A stretch of DNA of 64,000 nt from Candidatus Omnitrophota bacterium (GTDB lineage: Bacteria; Omnitrophota; Gorgyraeia; B26-G9): contig JAHITY010000088.1 of the NCBI GenBank assembly GCA_018817165.1, forward strand, positions 2,866-66,865, read 5' to 3'. Positions 1 to 15,181 of this stretch are shown one piece after another. A program made the translations under genes and the position numbers. Position 1 is the first letter of the stretch; each line of letters begins with the position of its first letter. The notes beneath the pieces were generated by a model that saw only the letters and a list, made by a program, of their open reading frames with translations, did not search any database and was not told the DNA's origin.

Positions 1-2384
1 CCCTTTTTGCTTAACTTCTTCCAGAAGTGTTCAAGAATATTTTCCATTGCCTGGCGACAATTTTTTAAAGCGTCTCTTCTGTTATCCTTTTGATAATCGC
101 GATCGGCCAATTCCAAATAATGCTTAGGATCAGAATAGTAAATTTTTACTCCGCGTTGTTTTATGATATCAGGAGGAATAAATTGAATATTAGAAACTAA
201 GTCGTTTCGCTTATTCTTATCAGAGGCAAGTTCAAGATTTTTGACAAATTCCTCTCCATGGCAAGTAATAATTTGTTGTTTATCCTTTAAATCTTCATGA
301 GAAAGCAATAATTCGATAATACCGCTTCTATGGTCATCATCAATAGCATTGACGATATCATCGAACACTAAAATTTCAAGACCTTCATTAACGGCTTTTG
401 AAAGTAGTAATACTAATCCAAGACATCTGATATGCCCTTCACTAAGAATTTGCAAAGCATCCAGCCGATTTTCGCTACCTAAAAAAAGTATTTCAATTTT
501 TTGTCCGCTTTCAGAGGGTAAAAATAATTCATTTATTTTTTCAAACTCTGGGTCTTGATAGTTAATAATATTGTAGAATTCAGCAGCCTTTGAAGCGATA
601 TTTTTTGAAATCATATATGGTAAGGAATCACGATATTTTTTCAAATCTACAATTATTTTAGCATATGATGTGCGAAATTGATTGTTACGTTCAATTTCTT
701 TATCAAGAACTTCAATTCTTTTAATTTCTACTTCATTTTGCTTTTTAAATTTATCGATCAATGCTTGAGAAGCATTAAGTGCCCCAACAATATCTTTCTC
801 TCGCGCTTCTATTGTGATAATTTCATCACGCAAACCCTTGAGCTTCTCAATTTCTTCATGCAGCTTACTATACTGTTCGCGTTTCGAAACGAGACTTAAG
901 TTGTAATCTTTTATTACTTTTTTTGTCTCTTTTATAAACGTTGAATGCTTCCGGATCTTTTCTATCTCAGCATTTGTGGAAGCAAGGAACATGTCGACTC
1001 TTTTAATTTCAAAGTTAGAAAGAGTTATCGTCGGCAGCAGATCTGCTTTCGGCTTTATTATATTATAAACAGTATTATAGCTTTGGATATAATCGTTCAT
1101 TGTTCTAGAGTTATCTAAAATGCTTTGAGCTAAAGAATGTATTTTCTCTTCAAGCTCCGCTAAAGATTTTAGTAGATTGTGTTGCTCATTAGCATTTTCA
1201 TATGGATTTTTGGTCACATTATTCAATGGTGTCAAACATGCCGGACAAATGGACTTGTCATAATCATCGCGGCCAGCAAGATCTTTTATCGAATTAAATA
1301 ACGCTTTAAATACAACATCCTTTCCTGCACTAACATATTTTTCTTGTATTTTCTTAAGGTCTTTAATACTTTTTTTAATGTGGGAAATTGAATCTCTGAC
1401 ATTCTGCGGTATTTTTTCATCAATATTATTTGGTATCTCTCTTCCCTTTTCATCTTGAAGTAAAGATATTTTTCCTTTTGTATCACTTTCATCATCAAGT
1501 AACTTCTTGAACTCTCTGATGTTTTTTATATTTGGGGTTCCTAGTTTTTTGATTAATTCAATCTCTTCGCTTTTGAGATTTTGAAGTTTGGTTTTTTCTT
1601 CCGCCAAAGTAGCAATATTTTGTTTATATTTCACTTGTTGTTCTTCAAAAGAAACTTTTAACGAATTGGTGGCTAATAAATGCTTGTCATCAAGAGTATC
1701 CGTAAAGTCTTCAACAAATGAATGGAATGCATCAAGACCGAAAAGAATGGAAATCCGAGCCTGCTGGTCTTTTGGGGTTGTGGCTGCCAGGCGAGCAAAT
1801 GAGTCAATTCTGTTTTTTTCTATGAAACAAAATCGGTAATTTTGAGATGAGGGTTGAACCAGATCCTCTTCTCCGTTATCAATGCTCCCATAAGCATTAG
1901 GTTTTTCCCAATTACCGGTATCAACATTCTGTAAATATTCTTGTATAGGAATTCTCTTAGCATCACACTCTTCAATTTCACCAAGTAACGCGTATTCAAG
2001 GCCTTCACAGAAACTGGATTTTCCAGATCCATTTGGCCCGCACATGTATGTATACTGCGTTTCAAACCGGAATGTTTCCTTTTGCCTAAACCCCCTGAAA
2101 GGACCAATCTCTAATCTTGTTATTTTAGAAACTCTTTTGTGATTACCAGACTCTTTCGAATGTACGGGAGAAACAAAAGGTTTGATGTCCTCACTAAACT
2201 TCTTGATTAGCTCTCCAATTCTTTTTGCCCTTTTACTTTGGGAACGTCCTAAAGGATAAAGTTCGTCTAAATTAGTTGCAATAAGATTTAGAAGCTTTTT
2301 ATCCGTATCGTTAAGTGTTTTATCTTGCTTTATACGTTCTAGCCAGAGATAAAACTCATTCTTTACAATAGCTGGTATGTTCAT
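1..2384 (-). CDS. Rad50/RloC-like ABC ATPase with coiled-coil zinc hook; 3'-truncated by the window edge (C-terminus lies beyond position 1). A candidate anticodon-nuclease or abortive-infection ATPase linked to the type I RM module
   Basis: Hand translation of the minus strand from the ATG at 2384 is open all the way to position 1. A Shine-Dalgarno AAGGAA sits 8 nt upstream, and the start lies 3 nt after the hsdS stop. Motifs seen: Walker A (LEIGPFRGF...YMCGPNGSGKSSF), a long K/E-rich coiled coil with a central CPAC zinc-hook-like motif (DYDKSICPACLTP), an ABC signature (LSEGH), Walker B (LEILVFDD), a D-loop and an H-loop-like ITCHG, followed by more than 100 further residues of extra C-terminal domain. 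The ORF track does not list it because it has no in-window stop; track ORFs 1286..1498 and 1820..2107 are out-of-frame pieces of it. Confidence 0.55.
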   Translation of the reverse strand, partial: MNIPAIVKNEFYLWLERIKQDKTLNDTDKKLLNLIATNLDELYPLGRSQSKRAKRIGELIKKFSEDIKPFVSPVHSKESGNHKRVSKITRLEIGPFRGFRQKETFRFETQYTYMCGPNGSGKSSFCEGLEYALLGEIEECDAKRIPIQEYLQNVDTGNWEKPNAYGSIDNGEEDLVQPSSQNYRFCFIEKNRIDSFARLAATTPKDQQARISILFGLDAFHSFVEDFTDTLDDKHLLATNSLKVSFEEQQVKYKQNIATLAEEKTKLQNLKSEEIELIKKLGTPNIKNIREFKKLLDDESDTKGKISLLQDEKGREIPNNIDEKIPQNVRDSISHIKKSIKDLKKIQEKYVSAGKDVVFKALFNSIKDLAGRDDYDKSICPACLTPLNNVTKNPYENANEQHNLLKSLAELEEKIHSLAQSILDNSRTMNDYIQSYNTVYNIIKPKADLLPTITLSNFEIKRVDMFLASTNAEIEKIRKHSTFIKETKKVIKDYNLSLVSKREQYSKLHEEIEKLKGLRDEIITIEAREKDIVGALNASQALIDKFKKQNEVEIKRIEVLDKEIERNNQFRTSYAKIIVDLKKYRDSLPYMISKNIASKAAEFYNIINYQDPEFEKINELFLPSESGQKIEILFLGSENRLDALQILSEGHIRCLGLVLLLSKAVNEGLEILVFDDIVNAIDDDHRSGIIELLLSHEDLKDKQQIITCHGEEFVKNLELASDKNKRNDLVSNIQFIPPDIIKQRGVKIYYSDPKHYLELADRDYQKDNRRDALKNCRQAMENILEHFWKKLSKK

Positions 2385-2387
2385 TAT

Positions 2388-3560
2388 TTAATTTCCTTTT
2401 ACTTTCAACTCTCCGCTCATCAGCTTTGGCAAAAGCGTATCTCGAAGTTTTTCAAGCGTAGAAATTTGATTTGCATTGTTCTTTAACTTAGGAAATATCT
2501 CTACCAATTGATAGTTTAATTTCTCAATTATTTTCATTGGTGGCATTTTCATTTCATATTCTTTAATTACATTAGCTTGTGCTCTTTGCCTCCCACTCGA
2601 GCCAGACATACTACTAATAGCAAAATCTCTAAAATCTTTATCCTTGGCTAAAATATATGAAATATATGGGTGAAATTGCTCTTTCATCCTTATCACAATA
2701 TATTCTGTCGATCCCCAACCAATTTCCTTATTATCTAAAAACGTCACAAAACAAGTTTTTCCATTTTCTAAGCATGGAGTAATCCTTGCTAAAAGAGTAT
2801 CTCCATTTTGAAATTTCATCCCTGATGTAAATTCTCGTTTATACCAACCCTCTGGATTAAAGGTTGAACTACTTACATTGCCCATTTCAAGGTATGTTGA
2901 GATATTTCCCTTCTTAAGCTGATATGTAGGATTTATATCCGCAATATCTTCAAGGCAACCATCCTCCCACTCCTCCTTAGCCTCTTCCACAAACCACTGC
3001 CTAAAAAGCGTTTCAGCTATTGATTCAAGGGTTTTATTTTGGCGGTGAAGTAAATCAATCTTATCATCCAAACTCGACAATACCCCGGCAATTGCTTTTT
3101 GTTCAGGAAGTGAGGGCAATATAATATCCAAATTTTCAATATCTGAAGGCTTTAATGATGGATATGTTGAAGTTGAAGCCTCAGCGATTATATCCAACTC
3201 CTCAACAATATCATCCGCCGACAAATAAAAATAAATAAACTTCGGGTCGGCTAAGTTTTTATTTGTTTCCAATACAACAAAACCTGTTGAAACAACTAAA
3301 TTTTCTTCTGGCTGAGCTACAAAACCATAATGACGTTGTATCGGTCTTACTGTTGAATAAACAATATCATCATGTTTTACTAGTCGTTTAGCCCTACTCG
3401 GAGCATCAATCAATTCAAGTTCCTGATACCCATCAATCTTTCCACAAGTAATGGAACCTGTATCTAAATATTTAATTACATTAAACTTATAGTCGCGACC
3501 AACACTCCGATTATTCGATGATATAACATCCCCCAACTTACATTCTTTCCAATCAGTCAT
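2388..3560 (-). CDS. hsdS: Type I restriction-modification specificity subunit HsdS
   Basis: Two target-recognition domains separated by the conserved central repeat (LPSLPEQKAIAGVLSSLDDKIDLLHRQNKTLESIAETLFRQWF). The conserved C-terminal repeat TLEKLRDTLLPKLMSGEL is present. Confidence 0.85.
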   Translation of the reverse strand: MTDWKECKLGDVISSNNRSVGRDYKFNVIKYLDTGSITCGKIDGYQELELIDAPSRAKRLVKHDDIVYSTVRPIQRHYGFVAQPEENLVVSTGFVVLETNKNLADPKFIYFYLSADDIVEELDIIAEASTSTYPSLKPSDIENLDIILPSLPEQKAIAGVLSSLDDKIDLLHRQNKTLESIAETLFRQWFVEEAKEEWEDGCLEDIADINPTYQLKKGNISTYLEMGNVSSSTFNPEGWYKREFTSGMKFQNGDTLLARITPCLENGKTCFVTFLDNKEIGWGSTEYIVIRMKEQFHPYISYILAKDKDFRDFAISSMSGSSGRQRAQANVIKEYEMKMPPMKIIEKLNYQLVEIFPKLKNNANQISTLEKLRDTLLPKLMSGELKVKGN

Positions 3561-3647
3561 TATTTACCATCCCACTCTAGTCTTAACTGATTAATTTCTT
3601 TCTCAGAAATGTCCAATTCTATTAAAATCTTTTGCATAATTTCTCTA

Positions 3648-3683
3648 CTTGTTCGGTTACTTATTCGGTTGCTTGTTCGGCAC
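3648..3683. repeat. Three tandem 12-bp direct repeats (cttgttcggtta / cttattcggttg / cttgttcggcac)
   Basis: Read directly from the sequence. They lie in the gene-remnant region between the ORF6N gene and hsdS. Confidence 0.6.
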
Positions 3684-3734
3684 ATTGGGTTTTAAATCCA
3701 ATTTTAGTCTCAAGTTTTACCTTTTTCTCAAAAT

Positions 3735-3953
3735 CTACATCTCTTTAGAGGAGATTTCCACTTTATAGGAAAGCTGCTTCCTGGTAATTTCAGGATGATT
3801 CCTTACCAATCGCAAGATCATTTCTTGGGTAGTTTCTTGGATAGCTTCTTGGGTAGTCTTTTGAGGGACATTCTTAAACCTTATCACAAAACTACCGTCT
3901 ATTACCTGATATTCAGGTAAAGGCAAGCCATCTGCTTTTAACAATTGATTCAT
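3735..3953 (-). pseudogene. Remnant of an AlbA_2/HATPase_c_4-type DNA-binding protein gene of the kind often inserted in type I RM loci
   Basis: The 72-aa ORF carries the characteristic segment GLPLPEYQVIDGSFVIRFKNVPQKTTQEAIQETTQE...ITRKQLS seen in the C-terminal HTH region of those proteins, but the rest of the gene is missing. A further 29-codon ORF (3561..3647) ends in a TAATG overlap with hsdS. Confidence 0.35.
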
Positions 3954-3957
3954 TATT

Positions 3958-4845
3958 TTACAATCTCTCTAATATTTTTAATGCCTGTTTACCAAACTTA
4001 GAAAATGCGAACATTTTCTTCCCCAAATCTTTTAATGATGCCCCAAAATGATAAACATCTTTATTATCAATAATTAAAAATCTGTCATGAGCATCTTTAA
4101 ATTCTTGAATAATAATTTCCGGATATTGCTCATTATGCTTTTTTAAATCCAAAGCAAGCTGTTTTGTTATAACCTTTGTAAAAATCCGCGCAGAAACACC
4201 TTTTTTGCGCTTAGTAAATAATGTCAGAACCGAATCATCAACATAATTATCAATCAGAATAATTGACTTTTTTGCCTTTCGTATAAGATCAGATACAAAT
4301 TTGTAAGCATCAAAAACTTGACCCTCAAAAAATATACCCTGTTTAGGCAATGCGTCTCCGCTCTCTAATGCCTTAAAAACCTGTTCAAATTTTTGATCTG
4401 TTATAATCTGATGTTCAAGCTGTTTTTTCTCCACTTCGTGTAACCTTTGGAATAATTGCCCATTAGACAAAATAAATTTACGCATCGCCACAAACGCGTT
4501 AATAATTTTAATACTAATTTTTACTGCTATATCACTCTTAAGAACTCCCGCGAGCATTGCAATGCCTTGTTCGTTAAAAACATACGGTAAATAACGTCGG
4601 CCACCCTTATTTCCCTTTGAGGTCACAAAATGTGACCTCAAACAATCATTCTCTTCTGTTGTCAGCTGAAACATAAATTCATCGGGAAAGCGTTCTTTAT
4701 TGCGTTTTACCGCTTGATTCAAAATCTTTGTTTCAACACCATAAAGTTCTGCCAAATCACTATCCAGCATAACCTGAACATCCCGCACCGTAAAAATCTT
4801 TCTTTCAACAGCTTCTAATTTAACTATCTCATTTTTCTCCATCAC
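3958..4845 (-). CDS. ORF6N (KilA-N-like) domain protein embedded between hsdM and hsdS
   Basis: The N-terminus IFTVRDVQVMLDSDLAELYGVETKILNQAVKRNKERFPDEFMFQLT is typical of the ORF6N domain. Its position between hsdM and hsdS is also typical. Confidence 0.6.
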   Translation of the reverse strand: MMEKNEIVKLEAVERKIFTVRDVQVMLDSDLAELYGVETKILNQAVKRNKERFPDEFMFQLTTEENDCLRSHFVTSKGNKGGRRYLPYVFNEQGIAMLAGVLKSDIAVKISIKIINAFVAMRKFILSNGQLFQRLHEVEKKQLEHQIITDQKFEQVFKALESGDALPKQGIFFEGQVFDAYKFVSDLIRKAKKSIILIDNYVDDSVLTLFTKRKKGVSARIFTKVITKQLALDLKKHNEQYPEIIIQEFKDAHDRFLIIDNKDVYHFGASLKDLGKKMFAFSKFGKQALKILERL

Positions 4846-4991
4846 TCTTCACCTATTTTAATTTATTCCTCACTTCATACACTGCTTCCGTTATAAGGTC
4901 ACATTTTGTGACCTTATAATGTTTCCAAACCTGCATTGGATTATGTATTTCTTTTTTAGATATCACAATTTGTGACTTCCAATCGTCCATT

Positions 4992-6560
4992 TCATCCTGA
5001 GTTAACTGAAGCCGCATTGACTTTAACTTTTTTCAAATTTTCTTTGATCAATGCGTTTAATTTTTCTTCTTCTTTCAGCTGTTCTTCAAATTCTTTTTTC
5101 AAAGCTGTAAACCGCTCATTAAAATCAAAATCATCTTCTTCATCCGGCAAACCAACATATCTACCTGGAGTCAGAACATAATCAAGTTCTCTAACTTTTT
5201 CTATGGATGTGGAATTACAAAACCCCTTTACATCCTCATAGTTACTTTCAGATTTACGCCAATTATGATAAGTTTGAGCTATATGTTTGATATCATCTGG
5301 TGAAAACTCCTTGGTTCTGCGATTGATCAAATGTCCCATATTGCGGGCATCAATAAACAGAATCTCATCAGTACGATTTCTATATCCGCCATTGGCTTTA
5401 TTTCTGCTTAAAAACCAAAGGCTTGCGGGAATCTGAGTATTTAAAAATAACTTTGCCGGAAGATTAACAATGCAGTCAACCAATCTGGCTTCAATCAAGG
5501 ATTTGCGGATATCACCTTCTCCTGAGGTTTTGGAGGTCAAAGAGCCTTTGGCCAAAACAAAACCCGCCATGCCTTTTGGACTCAGATGATATAAAAAGTG
5601 TTGTATCCAAGCATAATTAGCATTGCCGGGAGGCGGTGTGCCGAATTTCCAGCGGCCGTCATTACGTAGCAATTCACCACTCCAATCACTGTCATTAAAC
5701 GGAGGATTGGCAATCAAATAATCTGCTTTTAGATCTTTATGGCCATCATTTAAAAATGACCCTTCATTATTCCATTTAACTTGAGAGCTATCAATATTGC
5801 GAATTGCCAGATTCATTTTGGCCAAACGCCAGGTAGTTTGATTGCTTTCCTGTCCATAAATAGATAGATCATTTACTCTGCCTTGATGGCTGGATACAAA
5901 CTTTTCTGATTGAACAAACATACCTCCGGAACCGCAGCAAGGATCAAATACCCGGCCTTTGTGCGGCTCAAGCATTTCAACAAGTAATTCGACAACACTT
6001 CTCGGAGTATAAAACTGTCCGCCCTTTTTCCCTTCAGCCAGAGCAAATTCTCCCAAAAAATATTCAAATACATGCCCAAGAATATCAGCACTGCGGGCTT
6101 TGGCATCACCCAACGCAATTTTGCTAATCTCATCAATCAATCCACCAAGATTTGTCGGATCAAGATTGCCACGAGCGTATACCTTAGGCAATACGCCATT
6201 AAGCGATGGATTTTCCTTTTCAATGATATCCATTGCCGAGTCAACTATCTTACCAATAGTCGGCATTTTGGCATTAGAGCGCAAATGATTCCAACGAGCA
6301 ATTCCCGGAACAAAGAAAACATTTTCCGCTTTGTATTCATCTTTATCCTCTGGATCCGCGCCAGAATAACTCCCTTTACCAGCTACAAGTTTATCGTGCA
6401 ATTCTTCAAAAGTATCAGAGATATATTTTAAAAACATTAAGCCTAAAACTATATGTTTGTATTCAGCCGCGTCAATATTCTTTCTAAGCTTATCCGCGAC
6501 TTTCCAAAGCTGTTTTTCAATCGGCTCATCTTGAGTCTTGTTGTTTTTAACTTTTGCCAT
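4992..6560 (-). CDS. hsdM: Type I restriction-modification DNA methyltransferase subunit HsdM (N6-adenine)
   Basis: An N-terminal HsdM_N domain plus the motifs [17 protein letters not shown] and NPPF. Confidence 0.9.
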
Positions 6561-6584
6561 GTTTTCTCCAAATTCTTATAATAA

Positions 6585-7277
6585 TTATAAAATTCCTTGA
6601 TCGCTAAAACTATAGAAACCCTCACTACCAATAATGATATGATCTATTAATTTAATTTGCATCAGTTTTGCAGCTTCACTTAATTCTTTGGTAAATTTTT
6701 CATCTTGAGGACTTGGCTTTATCCTAGCACTGGGATGATTATGCGCGCAAATTATTGATACCGCGAATTTCTGCAAAGCTCCATGGATAATTTCCCGCAC
6801 AATCGGCATGGCGTGATTTACTGTACCTATTGCCGCGTCTTCAATATCAATAATTCGATTATCACTATCAAGATAAACAACCTTGAAAATCTCAGTCTTT
6901 AAATCCCTCATTTGCGGCATAAGAACATCCACAAGCTCTTTTGCTGATTTTATTTTCTGTTTTCCGGCAACAAGTTCATCTTCACGGAACCGCCTACCAA
7001 TCTCAAGAGCCGCCTGAATATGGGCAAGCTTTGCGCTGCCCAAGCCTTTAAACTCTTTCCAATCCCGCGCGTCTGTTTGAGTCATATTGCGAAATGTGCT
7101 AAATTTTTTAAGAATATTACGAGCAAGGTCAATCGCACTGGTGCCTTTAGTTCCGGTGCGCAGAAGAATAGCCAAGAGCTCAGACTTACTCAAAGTTTTC
7201 GCCCCATTCTTAAGCAGCTTCTCTCTGGGCCGATCATCTACTGGCCAACTGATAATACCTTGCGATTTCTTTTTCAT
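6585..7277 (-). CDS. radC: RadC-family JAB/MPN domain protein (UPF0758)
   Basis: A helix-hairpin-helix N-terminus and a JAMM motif (CAHNHPSA...SPQD). Confidence 0.85.
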   Translation of the reverse strand: MKKKSQGIISWPVDDRPREKLLKNGAKTLSKSELLAILLRTGTKGTSAIDLARNILKKFSTFRNMTQTDARDWKEFKGLGSAKLAHIQAALEIGRRFREDELVAGKQKIKSAKELVDVLMPQMRDLKTEIFKVVYLDSDNRIIDIEDAAIGTVNHAMPIVREIIHGALQKFAVSIICAHNHPSARIKPSPQDEKFTKELSEAAKLMQIKLIDHIIIGSEGFYSFSDQGIL

Positions 7278-7583
7278 AACACACCCTTAAAAACAAAAAA
7301 CCGAAGGATGTTTATCCTTCAGCCCCTATTCCAGTTATAACAAATACAATTTGATTTTCATCACATTATTTGATCCCATATTTAGATAAATTCAAAAGCC
7401 AAAAATATTCTTCGCTCAATCCAATAGCCCATCTAGACAATTTCTAAATTATCTAATATTTTACTAGGAATTAAAAAAGATAATAATATGTAATAATTAT
7501 ACTACCCCCGTACTAGTTAAACAACCCCTAAAATTAATGGAGATATAAACTTGCTATATCTCTAAACCTATGGCTATATTGTA

Positions 7584-7913
7584 ATGACAGCAAAGGAGAT
7601 GATTATGGAACAGGCAAAACTCAGGGAAATTATGGGGCATAAAGATTATACATTATCAGAGCTAAAGGCCAAATATAAGGCCTTATATGGCCCAGAAAGC
7701 GCCACACCAAGCAATAAAGTCTACTTATGGCGCAAGATTGCCTATAAACTGCAGGAACTGGAACACGGCGGGCTTTCCAGCCAAGCCCAGGGCAAAATTG
7801 AGGAGTTTATCGAGAAATATGACCCAGTTAACAATAAATTTAAAGATTATAAGATATCCAAATATTCAGATATTTTATCTAAAATTTCCTTAAAAGGAAT
7901 CTGCCCCTTATAA
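7584..7913 (+). CDS. DUF2924-like small protein, typical of integrative-element cargo. The true start is probably the ATG at 7605, preceded by AAGGAG.
   Basis: The sequence LREIMGHKDYTLSELKAKYKALYG...LWRKIAYKLQELEHGGLS matches the DUF2924 pattern. The ORF converges with AbiEii and overlaps it by 67 nt. Confidence 0.45.
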   Translation: MTAKEMIMEQAKLREIMGHKDYTLSELKAKYKALYGPESATPSNKVYLWRKIAYKLQELEHGGLSSQAQGKIEEFIEKYDPVNNKFKDYKISKYSDILSKISLKGICPL

Positions 7914-8794
7914 TATAAAGCCGACGTATTATTATATTCTCTTTCAAAAAGCTTTCTTGTTTTAACATTTTCTAACAATAAAGCTTCCTGTTTTAGAACA
8001 GGAAGTTCCTTATCTTTATCAGGAAATCGACACTCTTTATGATCTAGATATTCTTGTGTTCCAATAAAGTCCTGAACTGTCTCAACATTTAAAAGGCAAG
8101 CAAGATCATAATAATGTCGAATGAAATTTGGAGACAGTTGCCCACTTTCTTGAAATTGACGAAATTTTGTTAAAACTGTTTGCATTTTTTCAACGAATGT
8201 ATACCCAGGATGATAGCATTTTACATCGCAAGCTTTATTATCTAAAACTTCCATATTATTTTTTTGAGCAAAATCAAGAGCCCAAGAACTAATTATCAAA
8301 GGAGTATTGGGAGCAACATTATCAAAACCAACTTCAAGCAAAATCCCCTCTTTTACCCCATCGGCAAATGTAAACGTATTTTTATAGTAAAGCCGAATTC
8401 CTCCACTTCTGTATTTTTTATCATCAAAATCAGTATCACGCTCTACTCTATCTATTCCCTCAATTTGGATATTATTCGCAAGCCAATCATAGTAATTTTT
8501 ACGGCTTTCACAATGCTTTGGTTTATCATGATTTCTTCCAGTCTTAACATTCATCTGCGCAGGTGGTTCGATACGAATATCTATATCTTCGGAAAAACGA
8601 TGAATTATTCCATAGCCCTTAGAAAGTGATGTGCCGCCTTTTAATTCAAATAAGAATTCATTTTTCTGCAATCCATATAACACATGCATTATCCAATAAT
8701 CCTTTTCCACAAGACTACTCTCTATATTATGCTGATGTTCTACGGCTCGCAAAAGTTCTTTAAATTCATGATGGTTATGCAAATAATCAGGCAT
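7847..8794 (-). CDS. abiEii: AbiEii/AbiGii-family nucleotidyltransferase toxin of a type IV toxin-antitoxin / abortive-infection system (DUF1814)
   Basis: Carries the nucleotidyltransferase motif LKGGTSLSKGYGIIHRFSEDIDI. Confidence 0.8.
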   Translation of the reverse strand: MPDYLHNHHEFKELLRAVEHQHNIESSLVEKDYWIMHVLYGLQKNEFLFELKGGTSLSKGYGIIHRFSEDIDIRIEPPAQMNVKTGRNHDKPKHCESRKNYYDWLANNIQIEGIDRVERDTDFDDKKYRSGGIRLYYKNTFTFADGVKEGILLEVGFDNVAPNTPLIISSWALDFAQKNNMEVLDNKACDVKCYHPGYTFVEKMQTVLTKFRQFQESGQLSPNFIRHYYDLACLLNVETVQDFIGTQEYLDHKECRFPDKDKELPVLKQEALLLENVKTRKLFEREYNNTSALYYKGQIPFKEILDKISEYLDIL

Positions 8795-9380
8795 ACATTA
8801 AAGACTCCTCTGTTATCCATTTATTAAATAGAGTTTTTGTTCTTTCTCCCGCATAAGAATTGAAAACTTTTTTCATCTTTGATTTCGATCCTCTCAAAAC
8901 ATTTTCTTTAACACTTTTAAGAACATCCTCTCTATTTTCTGCTAGCTCATTTAAATTATTCAACAAATCAACCAATAAAAACTCTTTAGAGAGATGTTTA
9001 GGAAATTTATACTTTAAATGAAAATAAAACAACTTTCCTCCAAGCATGAATTGTCCATGGCGTTTATAATTATAAACAACCCTCTTATTATACAGTTGTG
9101 TTGTTCCCACGCCCAATGAATTATATAAATTAGGAGTAGTTAAAAGGAAATCTTTACTTTTTAAAAAAACCTGCACAAGTTTTTCATCCTCTGGAGGAAC
9201 ATTCCCAAAGGATGCTTTCATGGGATAATAATACAATCCCTGCGATACTTTCTGCAAAACCTTTTCTTTTACTAATTGCTTTAAGTGTCTATCAACAGCA
9301 TTAGACCATTGCGCTAGATCACTCCTACGATAAACCCGTCCTGGTTTCAGATTCTTTTTTAACTCTTTAATTGCCTTCAT
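8787..9380 (-). CDS. abiEi: AbiEi-family antitoxin / transcriptional regulator
   Basis: A winged-HTH-like N-terminus (RVYRRSDLAQWSNAVDRHLKQLVKEKVLQKV). It overlaps the downstream AbiEii gene by 8 nt. Confidence 0.6.
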   Translation of the reverse strand: MKAIKELKKNLKPGRVYRRSDLAQWSNAVDRHLKQLVKEKVLQKVSQGLYYYPMKASFGNVPPEDEKLVQVFLKSKDFLLTTPNLYNSLGVGTTQLYNKRVVYNYKRHGQFMLGGKLFYFHLKYKFPKHLSKEFLLVDLLNNLNELAENREDVLKSVKENVLRGSKSKMKKVFNSYAGERTKTLFNKWITEESLMYA

Positions 9381-9837
9381 TTTCTCTCACCTCACACTAC
9401 AAGTATACAGTCTTATTTATTATATTGCAAGTTTTTTAATTTAAATTTCATGCACTTTATTGACTTAAAAACAGTTTAATTATAGAACACATCAACTATA
9501 TTTAACTCTCAATTAATCATCATTAACGCAACATTAAGATATAATTATAGTTACAGCAAACACAAAAATTAACCAGTTGCATATCCTTTTACTTGAGAGA
9601 TAAAAAACAGAGAATTTCTAGTTAATGCTTCAAATCTCACCCATTAATCTTAACAATATCCGCCATAAATTCATTTACTAAAACTGATTCGCGAATCGCG
9701 ATATTAGAGATAAAGAGATACTAAAAAAAGCAGAAATTAGAACATAGGGTTTAGGGATTAGGCCTCCCCAGATAAAAGCAGATTATTTAGATAGCAGACA
9801 ATAAATATAAGTCATAACTCTTTGATGTGTTTGCAGA

Positions 9838-9872
9838 TACAAAAGGCCTGATAAGTAATTCTTATCAGGCCT
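9838..9872 (-). terminator. Rho-independent terminator-like hairpin
   Basis: A perfect 12-bp stem (aggcctgataag/cttatcaggcct) with a taatt loop. On the minus strand it is followed by TTTTGT. Confidence 0.4.
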
Positions 9873-9908
9873 TCTATTATCTCTCAAACTGGTGTTCGAG
9901 AGATTTAT

Positions 9909-9935
9909 TTGGCTGCCCCGCAGAACATTGAACCG
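9909..9935 (-). repeat. Partial direct repeat of the tRNA-Gln 3' end (candidate att core)
   Basis: The 14 nt ttggctgccccgca are identical to the tRNA-Gln 3' end (10216..10229). A further partial match (ttgaacc) follows. Confidence 0.6.
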
Positions 9936-10180
9936 TCGTGTCGCTCCCCTTGAAAAGCAGGTCCACTCACTCCCTAAGGGAGCACTCTTTCAGTTCCCCC
10001 TTAGTATTCCTCCTCCCTACGCAAAGAAGTTCCAGTACGCCGATCCCGAATGAAGTTGCCTAAGAAAAATATCCATCGGGATCCCGAAGAATCACCACAG
10101 AAGTCGAGGCATTCGGGATAAGGGAAAAACAGTCTTTTTCCCTAAAACCCTTTTTTATGGTTCGAGTCCAGGGCATAAAT

Positions 10181-10205
10181 AAAAAACCCACACTAAAAGT
10201 GTGGG
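10181..10205 (-). terminator. tRNA-Gln terminator hairpin
   Basis: A stem cccacac/gtgtggg flanked by an A-run and a T-run, immediately 3' of the tRNA. Confidence 0.5.
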
Positions 10206-10216
10206 TCTTATTATTT

Positions 10217-10291
10217 TGGCTGCCCCGCATGGACTTGAACCATGAACAAATGATCCAGAATCATCCGTGTTGCCAATTACACCACGGGGCA
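10217..10291 (-). tRNA. tRNA-Gln (anticodon CUG)
   Basis: The hand-folded 75-nt sequence has a 7-bp acceptor stem, U8, a D-loop with GG, anticodon loop UUCUGGA, T-loop TTCAAGT and an encoded CCA. Confidence 0.85.
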
Positions 10292-10333: not shown

Positions 10334-11641
10334 TCAAATATCGAATTCTTTTGCTTTTAACTTGTTGATCACAGATGTAAGCCTGGCAACCGATTTTTCT
10401 TTGCCTAAGAATTCAATAATTTCAAATATTCCCGGACTAACCGTCCCTCCGGTTAAAGCCACCCGCACTGGATGAATCAGCTCTCCGGCATTAATTCCCA
10501 AAGCATCAACCAAAACTCGAACATTTGCTTCTATTTGTTGTTTATCAAACGGATTGCTTTTTTCTAAAGCCTGGACAAATTTCTCCAAATAATCACAGAC
10601 ATTATCAATCTTTAAAAATTTATCCACAGCATCTTGGTCATATTCTATTTCATCTTTAAAGAAAAAACCGGCTAATTTGGAAAAATGTTCTAAAGTCGGC
10701 AAGCGAGTTTTATACAAAGCAATCAAACCAGTCAGCCATTTCTGATCATAAGTATCCGAAATATAACCCTTTTCCTGTAAACTGGGAATAATCATCTGTG
10801 TCAGTTTATCAATATCCATTTCTTTAATATATTGACCATTAACCCAGCTTAAACGGGTCATATCAAATATTGCCGCGGTTTTATTTACCCGTTTTAAAGA
10901 AAATTCTTTGACAAGAGTTTTTAAAGTGAACATTTCTTTATCCGTTCCTGGATTCCAGCCCAGCAGTGCCAAGTAATTAACCACTGCTTCCGGCAAGTAA
11001 CCTTGATTGCGATATTCAGTAATTGCCGTTGCCCCATGACGCTTAGACATCCTCGAGCCGTCTTCGCCATGAATCATCGGAATATGCACAAATTTCGGCG
11101 GTTTAAGCCCTAGGGCTTCATAAAGCATGATCTGCTTCGGAGTATTGGCAATATGGTCATCTCCCCGGATAATATGGGTCATTTCCATCAAAGCATCATC
11201 AACCACACAACAAAAATTATACGCCGGACTGCCGTCGGATTTCAGCAATACTTGGTCTTTTAATTGCTCAGTTCCGATCGTAATTTCACCGCGTAAAACA
11301 TCAAAGAACTTTATCGCCGCGTTTTCCGGAATCCGATAAATAATCGCCTCACCGTCTTTATAGGCTTTTCCAGAATCAAGCAGCTTTTTCGCGTATTCAC
11401 GATAAATATCAAACCGCTCACTTTGATAATATAATTCATCCCAATCCATTCCCAGCCATTTTAAACTATCTAAAATTTCATCCAGATATTTTTTTTCTGA
11501 GCGGACCTGATCAGTATCTTCAATTCTCAGGATAAATTTTCCCTTAGTAGAACGGGCATACAACCAGTTAAACAAACAAGTCCGCGCACCGCCAATATGT
11601 AAAAATCCAGTCGGTGAAGGAGCAAAACGAACTATCGGCAT
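10334..11641 (-). CDS. gltX: Glutamate--tRNA ligase
   Basis: A HIGG motif (FLHIGGARTC), KMSKS (RMSKRHG) and the overall class I GluRS architecture. Confidence 0.9.
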   Translation of the reverse strand: MPIVRFAPSPTGFLHIGGARTCLFNWLYARSTKGKFILRIEDTDQVRSEKKYLDEILDSLKWLGMDWDELYYQSERFDIYREYAKKLLDSGKAYKDGEAIIYRIPENAAIKFFDVLRGEITIGTEQLKDQVLLKSDGSPAYNFCCVVDDALMEMTHIIRGDDHIANTPKQIMLYEALGLKPPKFVHIPMIHGEDGSRMSKRHGATAITEYRNQGYLPEAVVNYLALLGWNPGTDKEMFTLKTLVKEFSLKRVNKTAAIFDMTRLSWVNGQYIKEMDIDKLTQMIIPSLQEKGYISDTYDQKWLTGLIALYKTRLPTLEHFSKLAGFFFKDEIEYDQDAVDKFLKIDNVCDYLEKFVQALEKSNPFDKQQIEANVRVLVDALGINAGELIHPVRVALTGGTVSPGIFEIIEFLGKEKSVARLTSVINKLKAKEFDI

Positions 11642-13916: not shown

Positions 13917-15181
13917 TCCTCCACTTGACTTATAATAACACCTTTATCTAATTTTGTCTCTAATATATCTCCTTTTTTCAAACCCTGAATATCTTTGAGC
14001 AGTTTTTTTTCAGAGGATAAATAAGTAACACTATAGCCGCGGGATAATATCGCTAAAGGATTCAGATTCAGCAGTCTGGCGCTGATCTGGGCTAAGTGCG
14101 ATTGTTTGGTCTTTAATAACCGAGATATTCCTGCTTCGAGATTGATTAAAGGCTTAAACCGGGCATTTTTAGTGTCTAGAACATTTAAAATTCCGGTTTT
14201 TAATCTTTTGTCTAAATTATCCAGACTCTGCTGGTATTGCTCCACAATCACCTGGGGCCGACGCAAAGCATAACTTTTGATTAAATGCGAAAAGCGCATT
14301 TGAGCTAACTTAAGTCTCTGGACAACTGATTCTGTTAACCTTTTGGCCATTGACTCAACCGCTAAAACTAATTGCTCTTTTTCCTGCACCACTAATTCCG
14401 CGGCAGCCGAAGGCGTGGGGGCACGCAAATCAGCGACAAAATCACAAATTGTAAAATCAATTTCATGGCCCACCGCTGATATGATCGGAATTCGGGAATT
14501 ATAAACGGCTCTGGCTACAGGCTCCTCATTAAACGCCCATAAATCTTCCAAGCTGCCGCCGCCCCGGCCAACAATAATCACATCAATATCTTTAAATGAA
14601 TTTAATTCTTCAATTGCACAAGCAATATCCAATGCCGCGGTTTTACCCTGAACCAGACAAGGACGAATAATAATATGCACATTCGCATAACGCCGATTAA
14701 TTACCTGCAGAATATCTCTGATTGCCGCGCCCGTAGAAGATGTAACAATTCCGATTTTCTGGGGTAAAAACGGCATTACCCGCTTATGAGCAGGATCAAA
14801 TAACCCCTCGGCTGCTAGTTTTTTCTTTAGCTGTTCATAGGCAAGCTGTAATGAGCCTTTGCCCAATGGTTCCACACTATTGACATACAGCTGATATTGA
14901 CCGCTTTGATCATATAAACTGATCCGGCCGGCACACACACATTCCATACCATCTTCGGGTTTGAAATTAAGCCGCATGCTCGCATTTTTAAAAAAAACAC
15001 ATTTAAGCTGAGCTTTTTCATCTTTTAGGGTAAAGTACATATGCCCTGATTGAGGAGTCCTCAAAGTAGAGACTTCTCCTTTGATCCAAACTTGGGGAAA
15101 GCTGTCTTCTAAAATCTCACGGATATTCCGCGTAAGTTCCGCGACAGTATAAATTGTTTTTTCTTTAAATAAATCAGCCAT
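13904..15181 (-). CDS. xseA: Exodeoxyribonuclease VII large subunit
   Basis: An OB-fold N-terminus and catalytic core (GRGGGS) with a coiled-coil C-terminus. Confidence 0.9.
   Translation of the reverse strand: MADLFKEKTIYTVAELTRNIREILEDSFPQVWIKGEVSTLRTPQSGHMYFTLKDEKAQLKCVFFKNASMRLNFKPEDGMECVCAGRISLYDQSGQYQLYVNSVEPLGKGSLQLAYEQLKKKLAAEGLFDPAHKRVMPFLPQKIGIVTSSTGAAIRDILQVINRRYANVHIIIRPCLVQGKTAALDIACAIEELNSFKDIDVIIVGRGGGSLEDLWAFNEEPVARAVYNSRIPIISAVGHEIDFTICDFVADLRAPTPSAAAELVVQEKEQLVLAVESMAKRLTESVVQRLKLAQMRFSHLIKSYALRRPQVIVEQYQQSLDNLDKRLKTGILNVLDTKNARFKPLINLEAGISRLLKTKQSHLAQISARLLNLNPLAILSRGYSVTYLSSEKKLLKDIQGLKKGDILETKLDKGVIISQVEECRK

Follow-up and report, generated by a model that had tools for sequence, protein, structure and literature searches.

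RloC proteins are defined by ATP-binding cassette (ABC) motifs, a coiled coil that carries a CxxC hook and an R-x3-E-x36-52-H arrangement of residues (Davidov & Kaufmann 2008, PMC2610378), and their nuclease domain has been classed as HEPN (Anantharaman et al., PMC3710099). It is established that defence systems can be found among the genes embedded in restriction-modification (R-M) operons and in those of other immune systems (Payne et al. 2024, bioRxiv 10.1101/2024.01.29.577857). A member of one family, PDC-S05, annotated as Virulence_RhuM in a cold-seep study, protected E. coli against T7, T5 and T4, with the plating of T7 and T5 reduced about 1000-fold. Here we describe a region in which genes of these kinds meet. 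It occupies the left end of a 64,000-nt stretch (the window) of contig JAHITY010000088.1, from a Candidatus Omnitrophota metagenome-assembled genome, and comprises a type I R-M operon, a RloC-like ABC ATPase, an ORF6N gene, a DUF2924 relic and an AbiEi/AbiEii pair beside tRNA-Gln(CUG). We interpret it, with a probability of about 0.65, as a mosaic defence island that is no longer mobile, placed at the 3' flank of this tRNA gene.

Window genes were assigned to families with Pfam, PADLOC and NCBIfam. From the left edge they are ordered as follows: ABC ATPase, hsdS, a gene remnant, the ORF6N gene, hsdM, RadC, the DUF2924 relic, AbiEii, AbiEi, tRNA-Gln(CUG) and gltX. The DUF2924 relic is the only plus-strand gene in this map, all others lying on the minus strand, and about 840 bp of non-coding DNA separate AbiEi from the tRNA gene. 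An earlier note on this DNA, made from the sequence alone, had listed these genes. Each was found where it had been placed, and the list is correct, because the three collections confirm every assignment. The general proposal of that note, mobile defence cargo beside a tRNA gene, also held, in that accessory defence cargo does lie on the 3' side of tRNA-Gln.

The type I operon and its RloC-like ATPase

Read on the minus strand, the operon runs RadC, hsdM, ORF6N, hsdS, ATPase, hsdR. HsdM carries N6_Mtase (E 1e-108) and HsdM_N (E 8e-26) domains in Pfam and matches the PADLOC model MTase_I (E 2.5e-198), while HsdS contains two Methylase_S stretches (Pfam) and matches Specificity_I in PADLOC over its full length (E 9e-81 to 6e-94). 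RadC, 24 nt upstream of hsdM, consists of an HhH-type N-domain and a JAB domain and scores 236.5 bits on the NCBIfam model PRK00024 (cut-off 180). The G+C content of RadC and hsdM is 39-40% and core-like.

The gene hsdR opens 15 nt past the ATPase stop, just beyond the left window edge, and is present in two assemblies. One is the Logan contig L002, identical base for base to the window over their overlap, whose hsdR encodes HSDR_N (E 4e-52) and SWI2_SNF2 domains. The other, L089 (70,721 bp), comes from ENA as an independent assembly and differs from the window at one position in 17.9 kb; it covers 476 aa of HsdR, including a D..ELK nuclease motif, GSGKS and DEAH. On the NCBIfam model TIGR00348 the HsdR fragment scores 338 bits against a cut-off of 284.55. 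Judged by its sequence, with HsdR known from its first 476 aa, the type I R-M system is predicted to be complete, with two further defence genes embedded in it. The earlier note had taken the system for an orphan, either modification-only or a PrrC-like guard, and had proposed a leftward look for hsdR. That look succeeded in both assemblies, and the orphan interpretation is refuted. Two exact-pattern scans of metagenome contigs for a leftward extension gave no match, and no identical full-length HsdR came up when the HsdR fragment was used as a query. A type I system that seems orphan at the edge of a contig or window may prove complete.

The first of the embedded genes, located between hsdM and hsdS, encodes a protein with an ORF6N domain (Pfam, E 2.7e-34) and a weak PLDc_2 match (E 0.0015). 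It aligns with the PADLOC model of PDC-S05, PDLC04869, at E 1.5e-127, its residues 1-294 falling on positions 1-299 of the 306-position profile.

The second encodes the ABC ATPase, whose full form (P0001, 913 aa) is 100% identical to the NCBI protein KJ915_08160. An alignment with 25 homologues (31-41% identity) revealed an invariant Walker A motif GPNGSGKS (116-123), the signature LSEGH (647-651), the Walker B/D-loop FDD..DDDH and the linchpin H709. Equally invariant is the C380-P-x-C383 motif, midway along a putatively coiled-coil insert of about 500 aa between Walker A and the signature. The C-terminal domain, which models as a HEPN fold (predicted local distance difference test score, pLDDT, 79.9), contains the invariant residues R777, E781, N851, G853 and H855 (R777-x3-E781; N851-x-G-x-H855). 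The RloC-like nature proposed in the earlier note is borne out at the level of architecture by the ABC motifs, the CxxC hook and, by modelling, the HEPN fold; the R-x3-E...H residues are present too, at a wider spacing than in RloC. On paper the 913-aa ATPase resembles RloC, but by its sequence it is a separate family, whose membership of RloC is not established.

A homologue in Treponema primitia adjoins genes for a Type ISP restriction enzyme, YhcG and KilA-N, and another, in Electrothrix, adjoins sbcCD; the family is thus often, but not always, linked to R-M loci, which has also been reported of RloC. Such neighbourhoods bear on a different interpretation of the protein, which we regard as unlikely: that it senses or repairs DNA in the manner of SMC/Rad50 or LmuB, has a non-catalytic helical bundle at its C-terminus and is no RNase effector. 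The homologue beside sbcCD would suit such a role, as would the sequence-level matches, found only with SMC/Rad50/RecF heads and, weakly, with LmuB, mad3 and AbiLi; moreover, the canonical HEPN motif Rx4-6H is not obvious, the sequence reading LNKGxHE. However, R777, E781 and H855 are invariant across the family and mirror the RloC/PrrC triad, and the gene is found within a type I operon in the window and beside the Type ISP enzyme in Treponema primitia. Because PADLOC does not recognise the family, it would be missed in defence surveys that use the tested models.

If the ATPase is a latent RNase, the components of the island could form successive lines of defence. An HsdM2S complex would methylate host DNA, and HsdR would cut unmodified DNA. 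The RloC-like protein would act as a second line, its Rad50-like head and hook sensing DNA or the state of the restriction complex, and failure of restriction would release the HEPN RNase, probably an anticodon nuclease, leading to translation shutdown. The PDC-S05 protein and the AbiEi/AbiEii pair would constitute independent abortive layers.

The DUF2924 relic and the tRNA-Gln flank

The DUF2924 protein of the window matches only positions 3-72 of the 135-position Pfam profile. Its full-length homologues have 156 aa, and homology to them ends at about codon 85. At the nucleotide level the relic is 80.6% identical to the related loci L091 and L092 over 299 nt, ending at position 7838, i.e. 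9 nt before the AbiEii stop (7847). The earlier note had listed it simply as a DUF2924 protein; with only about 85 of 156 codons homologous, it is, as its sequence indicates, a truncated relic rather than a working member of the elements that combine DUF2924 with a recombinase. Since the homology stops 9 nt from the AbiEii stop, the AbiE cassette stands where a recombinase would be expected. This cassette is itself a standard pair, as the earlier note had it: AbiEii is identified by Pfam (E 6e-27) and PADLOC (E 3e-71), AbiEi by PADLOC (E 1.3e-81, profile positions 1-190 of 191), and the two genes overlap by 8 nt.

In L091 and L093/94 the DUF2924 gene is directly followed by a large serine recombinase of 545-556 aa (Resolvase/Recombinase/Zn_ribbon_recom). 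In L095-98 the gene after DUF2924 is cut by the contig end and matches the L091 recombinase at 54-63%. Upstream of DUF2924 all of these loci carry defence cargo on the opposite strand, including helicase/methylase/nuclease sets, AbiEii, TIR-STAND and Dcm/Vsr. The statement that DUF2924 is usually found beside serine recombinases thus applies to every related locus read. In L091 the recombinase is followed, after 515 nt, by a tRNA-Gln(UUG) gene whose 3' end points towards it. In L030 (13733-15460) and L033 (11947-13425), which have tRNA-Gln(CUG) beside gltX, intact genes for large serine recombinases run into the 3' end of this tRNA gene and stop within it. In a further locus, L012, a large serine recombinase is found next to tRNA-Ser. 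Together with L030 and L033, this locus suggests widespread tRNA targeting by serine recombinases in Omnitrophota.

Over the entire window, a tblastn search with a related recombinase gave no match to a serine recombinase, a result that does not extend to tyrosine integrases in the rest of the window, for which no search was made. It agrees with the remark in the earlier note that the window contains no integrase. The island recombinase, probably the enzyme responsible for the insertion, has, to judge from the sequence, probably been lost. The DUF2924 fragment had no match in phage or plasmid collections.

On the tRNA side of the island lies a repeat of the tRNA-Gln 3' end. The 14-nt sequence TTGGCTGCCCCGCA (also given as GCGGGGCAGCCA) occurs in exactly two copies, at 9909 and 10216, against 0.18 expected by chance; the copies are spaced 307 nt apart, and their similarity extends to 32 nt at 78% identity. 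Compared with the related locus L010, they bound a 307-bp insertion, and the island begins only past the second copy: the L010 sequence behind the tRNA gene corresponds, at 77-84% identity, to the window sequence behind this copy, from 9921 down to 9649. The direct repeat that the earlier note had placed at the boundary is therefore real, but its copies flank the small insertion and not the island. Directly after the second copy lies a conserved arm with a hairpin (9843-9873) and an inverted repeat (9879-9904). It is homologous to the tRNA-adjacent sequence of L010 at 77-84% identity, and similar blocks recur after the recombinase in L091 and further downstream in L093/L094. The inverted repeat ATCTCTC...GAGAGAT adjoins the copy of the tRNA end in the window (9879-9904), in L094 (~14770-14800) and in L091 (~10615-10655), and is a candidate binding or crossover site of the recombinase.

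The filler between the repeat copies has a G+C content of 45.7% in a background of about 35% and contains a terminator (10183-10209). In our view, a subsequent event at this site left it as a scar. It also includes an imperfect inverted copy of the tRNA T-arm (10151-10170), owing to which the filler ends can pair. The filler had no match in Rfam and no significant fold relative to shuffled sequences on either strand (z -1.5 and -0.7). The possibility that it encodes a transfer-messenger RNA (tmRNA) or another known RNA was rejected: Rfam found only the tRNA, ARAGORN no tmRNA, and the fold was no better than that of the shuffles.

Comparison with other genomes revealed that none of the island genes is present beside gltX/tRNA-Gln in any of 35 other Omnitrophota loci, in line with the earlier view of them as accessory rather than core. 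Relatives carry other cargo at this site, HEPN/MNT and YhcG genes in L010 and YhcG in L003, and distant relatives have unrelated genes there. In L010 a 21-nt direct copy of the tRNA-Gln 3' end (3430-3441, 6257-6268) flanks a 2.8-kb segment with the arm, the HEPN/MNT pair and YhcG, which shows that the tRNA 3' end does become duplicated at this site. No recombinase gene was found between these two copies. A second, partial copy of the arm is found in L010 at 6281-6326.

Taking these observations together, the following sequence of events may be envisaged. An element with DUF2924 and a large serine recombinase would have targeted the tRNA-Gln 3' end and integrated so that the recombinase module came to lie nearest the tRNA gene. 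The entire recombinase gene and the final ~70 codons of DUF2924 would then have given way to an AbiE cassette (~7839-9612), while the element's terminal arm (9613-9908) and the copy of the tRNA 3' end (9909-9922) stayed behind. A later event at the regenerated site would have produced the 307-bp duplication unit (9923-10229).

The model implied by the earlier note was different: a tRNA-integrated island with 14-nt attachment (att) repeats, a type I guard complex devoid of hsdR, and a (tyrosine) integrase at the distal end. The repeat is genuine, the tblastn search revealed no recombinase gene in the window, and hsdR does lie outside the latter. Nevertheless, we consider this model very improbable: hsdR follows 15 nt past the ATPase stop in two assemblies and scores above the NCBIfam cut-off, the repeat copies enclose only 307 bp, and in related elements the serine recombinase lies on the tRNA side (L030, L033, L091), where the window has the DUF2924 stump. 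The expected distal position of the integrase is thus probably wrong.

Another possibility, which we judge rather unlikely, is that no single mobile element was involved, the tRNA-Gln flank being a hotspot at which unrelated modules piled up beside an older resident block, formed by RadC and the type I operon and having no connection with the relic. Separate homologues and breakpoints (7838/7847, ~9612, 9922) characterise the individual modules, a terminator and a promoter-like stretch lie between RadC and the relic, RadC and hsdM have a core-like base composition, and the cargo is wholly different among related elements, all of which such piling-up would accommodate. Yet L091 shows the same succession of minus-strand cargo, DUF2924 (+), recombinase (+), arm and tRNA, the part consisting of cargo, DUF2924 and recombinase recurs in L093/94 and L095-98, and RadC or hsd genes occupy the site in none of the 35 related gltX loci.

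Several points weigh against the mosaic, no longer mobile island that we favour. All functions assigned to it rest on homology and fold, the activity of every component being predicted. Coverage by L002 and by L089 breaks off within hsdR, so that the distal border, any third repeat and the C-terminal half of HsdR lie past it. RadC and the R-M operon may have been cargo of the DUF2924 element or may have been acquired separately, and the evidence is compatible with either course. Base composition is not deviant (G+C 34.8% in positions 1-9908 against 36.5 ± 2.7% in the rest of the window), and the recombinase of L093/94 has no tRNA gene nearby. In GltX even the nearest relatives share only 75-76% identity. 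Because their contigs break off at the tRNA gene or shortly past it, a true empty site is not available for comparison. As regards the ATPase, the spacing between Glu781 and His855 is 73 residues (~68-70 in most homologues), against 36-52 in the RloC triad. Pfam AAA_13 (PF13166) stays below its cut-off in every member: P0001 has no match, and 7 of the 25 homologues score 24-30 bits against a cut-off of 36, mostly on the ATPase motifs. Finally, a profile of the HEPN domain, compared with 1.84 billion representatives, finds only 269 proteins, those of this ~880-aa family; the full-length matches all have ~870-920 aa, with the domain at the same place.

Feature map and side observations

The coordinates of all features are collected in Table 1.

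Table 1. Features at the left end of the window and in its gltX flank (positions in the window).
Feature	Positions	Strand	Basis or remark
RloC-like ABC ATPase, zinc hook + HEPN domain	1..2384	-	First 794 of 913 codons of P0001; last 119 past left edge
hsdS, type I specificity subunit, 2 target-recognition domains	2388..3560	-	Pfam Methylase_S, PADLOC Specificity_I
Gene remnant	3561..3953	-	72-aa open reading frame (ORF) 3735-3953, then stop-ridden sequence
ORF6N protein, degenerate PLD-like C-terminus, PDC-S05 candidate	3958..4845	-	Pfam and PADLOC
54-aa ORF overlapping hsdM 3' end	4853..5017	-	Called in L001
hsdM, type I methyltransferase	4992..6560	-	N6_Mtase, HsdM_N, PADLOC MTase_I
RadC, full length (UPF0758_N + JAB)	6585..7277	-	Pfam, NCBIfam PRK00024
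Terminator-like hairpin just upstream of RadC	7296..7327	-	Lies between RadC and the relic
Promoter-like stretch TTGTTT ... TATAAT facing RadC/hsdM	7481..7547	-	Promoter reading by eye
DUF2924 gene relic (ORF 7584-7913)	7541..7838	+	Nucleotide homology to L091/L092
AbiEii nucleotidyltransferase toxin	7847..8794	-	Pfam AbiEii, PADLOC AbiEii
AbiEi antitoxin/regulator	8787..9380	-	PADLOC AbiEi
Conserved non-coding arm	9613..9908	.	Homology to L010, L091, L093/L094
Second copy of tRNA-Gln 3' end (TTGGCTGCCCCGCA)	9909..9922	-	Exact repeat
293-bp G+C-richer filler between repeat copies	9923..10215	.	No counterpart in L010
tRNA-Gln(CUG), 3' end towards island	10217..10291	-	ARAGORN, Rfam
gltX, core flank	10334..11641	-	Pfam; linkage to tRNA-Gln kept across Omnitrophota

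The 72-aa remnant matched no family in Pfam, PADLOC or NCBIfam, and its translation runs on only across stops. For one candidate identity, the C-terminus of an AlbA_2/HATPase_c_4 regulator, comparison with such a protein from L030 gave no similarity. The 54-aa ORF that overlaps hsdM likewise had no family match; one stretch of it resembles, by eye only, the FQLT..E...LRSxFVTSK motif of the neighbouring ORF6N protein, and the ORF may be what is left of another ORF6N-like gene. The promoter-like stretch of 67 nt is 82% identical to positions 6081-6147 of L003, downstream of the tRNA-Gln and upstream of the DUF1016/YhcG gene of that locus, and has been kept there despite different flanking genes.

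L003, from the closest relative, shows further structures behind its tRNA-Gln. Two tandem units of ~187 nt (5479-5853) each consist of a partial tRNA-Gln copy that extends from the anticodon arm to CCA and contains intervening hairpins. In one of these hairpins a compensatory pair distinguishes the two units (AGCCCAGAA/TTCTGGGCT versus AGCTCAGAA/TTCTGAGCT), which could be integration scars or structured RNAs. The segment 5893-6080 starts with GTGCGCC directly after a terminator, resembling the 5' end of a group II intron, with no Rfam match at the gathering score. The contigs of the two closest relatives stop exactly at tRNA-Gln or 1.1 kb past it (L004, 11429-11499; end of L003), which would fit assemblies breaking where the sequence is variable or repeated.

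Three other candidate signals were discarded. The ORFs of 1047, 390 and 494 aa next to tRNA-Gln in L018/L021/L025, from which a type I R-M system had been guessed, encode an RND efflux pump. A 21-mer of the arm matched one viral contig with no similarity beyond it, a chance match. The ends of Logan contigs at ~7311-7330 and 9670, considered as strain variation, coincide with hairpins or palindromes and were not used as evidence.

Comparison with known systems

Two broader proposals can be made jointly, and only tentatively, since we think them slightly more apt to fail than to hold. The first is that the ABC-hook-HEPN family of ~880-913 aa (269 clusters at 50% identity, outside Pfam AAA_13, NCBIfam and PADLOC) may be a distinct RNase effector that guards type I and Type ISP enzymes in the manner of PrrC. 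The second is that elements combining DUF2924 with a serine recombinase may be a family of tRNA-Gln-targeting carriers in Omnitrophota with almost exclusively defence cargo, of which the one in the window would have been fossilised by the insertion of a toxin-antitoxin cassette. That DUF2924/serine recombinases are linked to tRNA-Gln hints at a way in which defence cargo travels among these bacteria. The window also illustrates the PrrC/RloC logic clearly, and does so in a phylum that has received little study, with a predicted ABC-HEPN nuclease and a RhuM/ORF6N-type gene inside one hsd operon.

With RloC of Geobacillus kaustophilus the ATPase shares the ABC head, the long insert with a central CxxC zinc hook, the linchpin His, the C-terminal R-x3-E...H triad, the HEPN domain (modelled here) and an occasional linkage to R-M loci. 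It differs in its length (913 versus 804 aa), in an additional N-terminal region of ~85 aa and in the greater distance of the His from the Glu. The resemblance to EcoPrrI-PrrC, a type Ic R-M system with an embedded anticodon nuclease, lies in the presence of an ABC-HEPN gene inside a type I hsd operon that is predicted to be complete, an arrangement that suggests a latent RNase held in check by the restriction enzyme. PrrC, however, has about 400 aa and lacks a coiled coil or hook, whereas the window protein has its insert of ~500 aa; furthermore, the window gene is placed between hsdS and hsdR, a gene order unlike that of EcoPrrI. To our knowledge, no Stp-like trigger is known for the hsd-embedded ATPase of the window.

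The ORF6N gene, matching PDLC04869 over its full length within hsdM-hsdS, is comparable to the embedded defence genes described by Payne et al. The tested member of PDC-S05 carries the Virulence_RhuM annotation, whereas the window protein has an ORF6N and a weak PLD-like domain; because that member was annotated as RhuM-like, the window protein may belong to another subfamily. The overlapping abiEi-abiEii genes, with their strong PADLOC matches, correspond to the AbiE type IV toxin-antitoxin and abortive infection system, and only their location, in the place of a recombinase, is unusual.

As a whole, the region most resembles the tRNA-targeting islands with DUF2924 and a serine recombinase. 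The likeness comprises cargo on the opposite strand followed by DUF2924 (L091, L093/94, L095-98), the arm (L091, L093/94), adjacency to tRNA-Gln (L030, L033, L091) and duplication of the tRNA 3' end (L010); the window differs in having no recombinase and a DUF2924 gene cut to ~85 codons. The island is of a known kind, to which it adds an uncatalogued member of a RloC-like family, and the current understanding of such islands stands.

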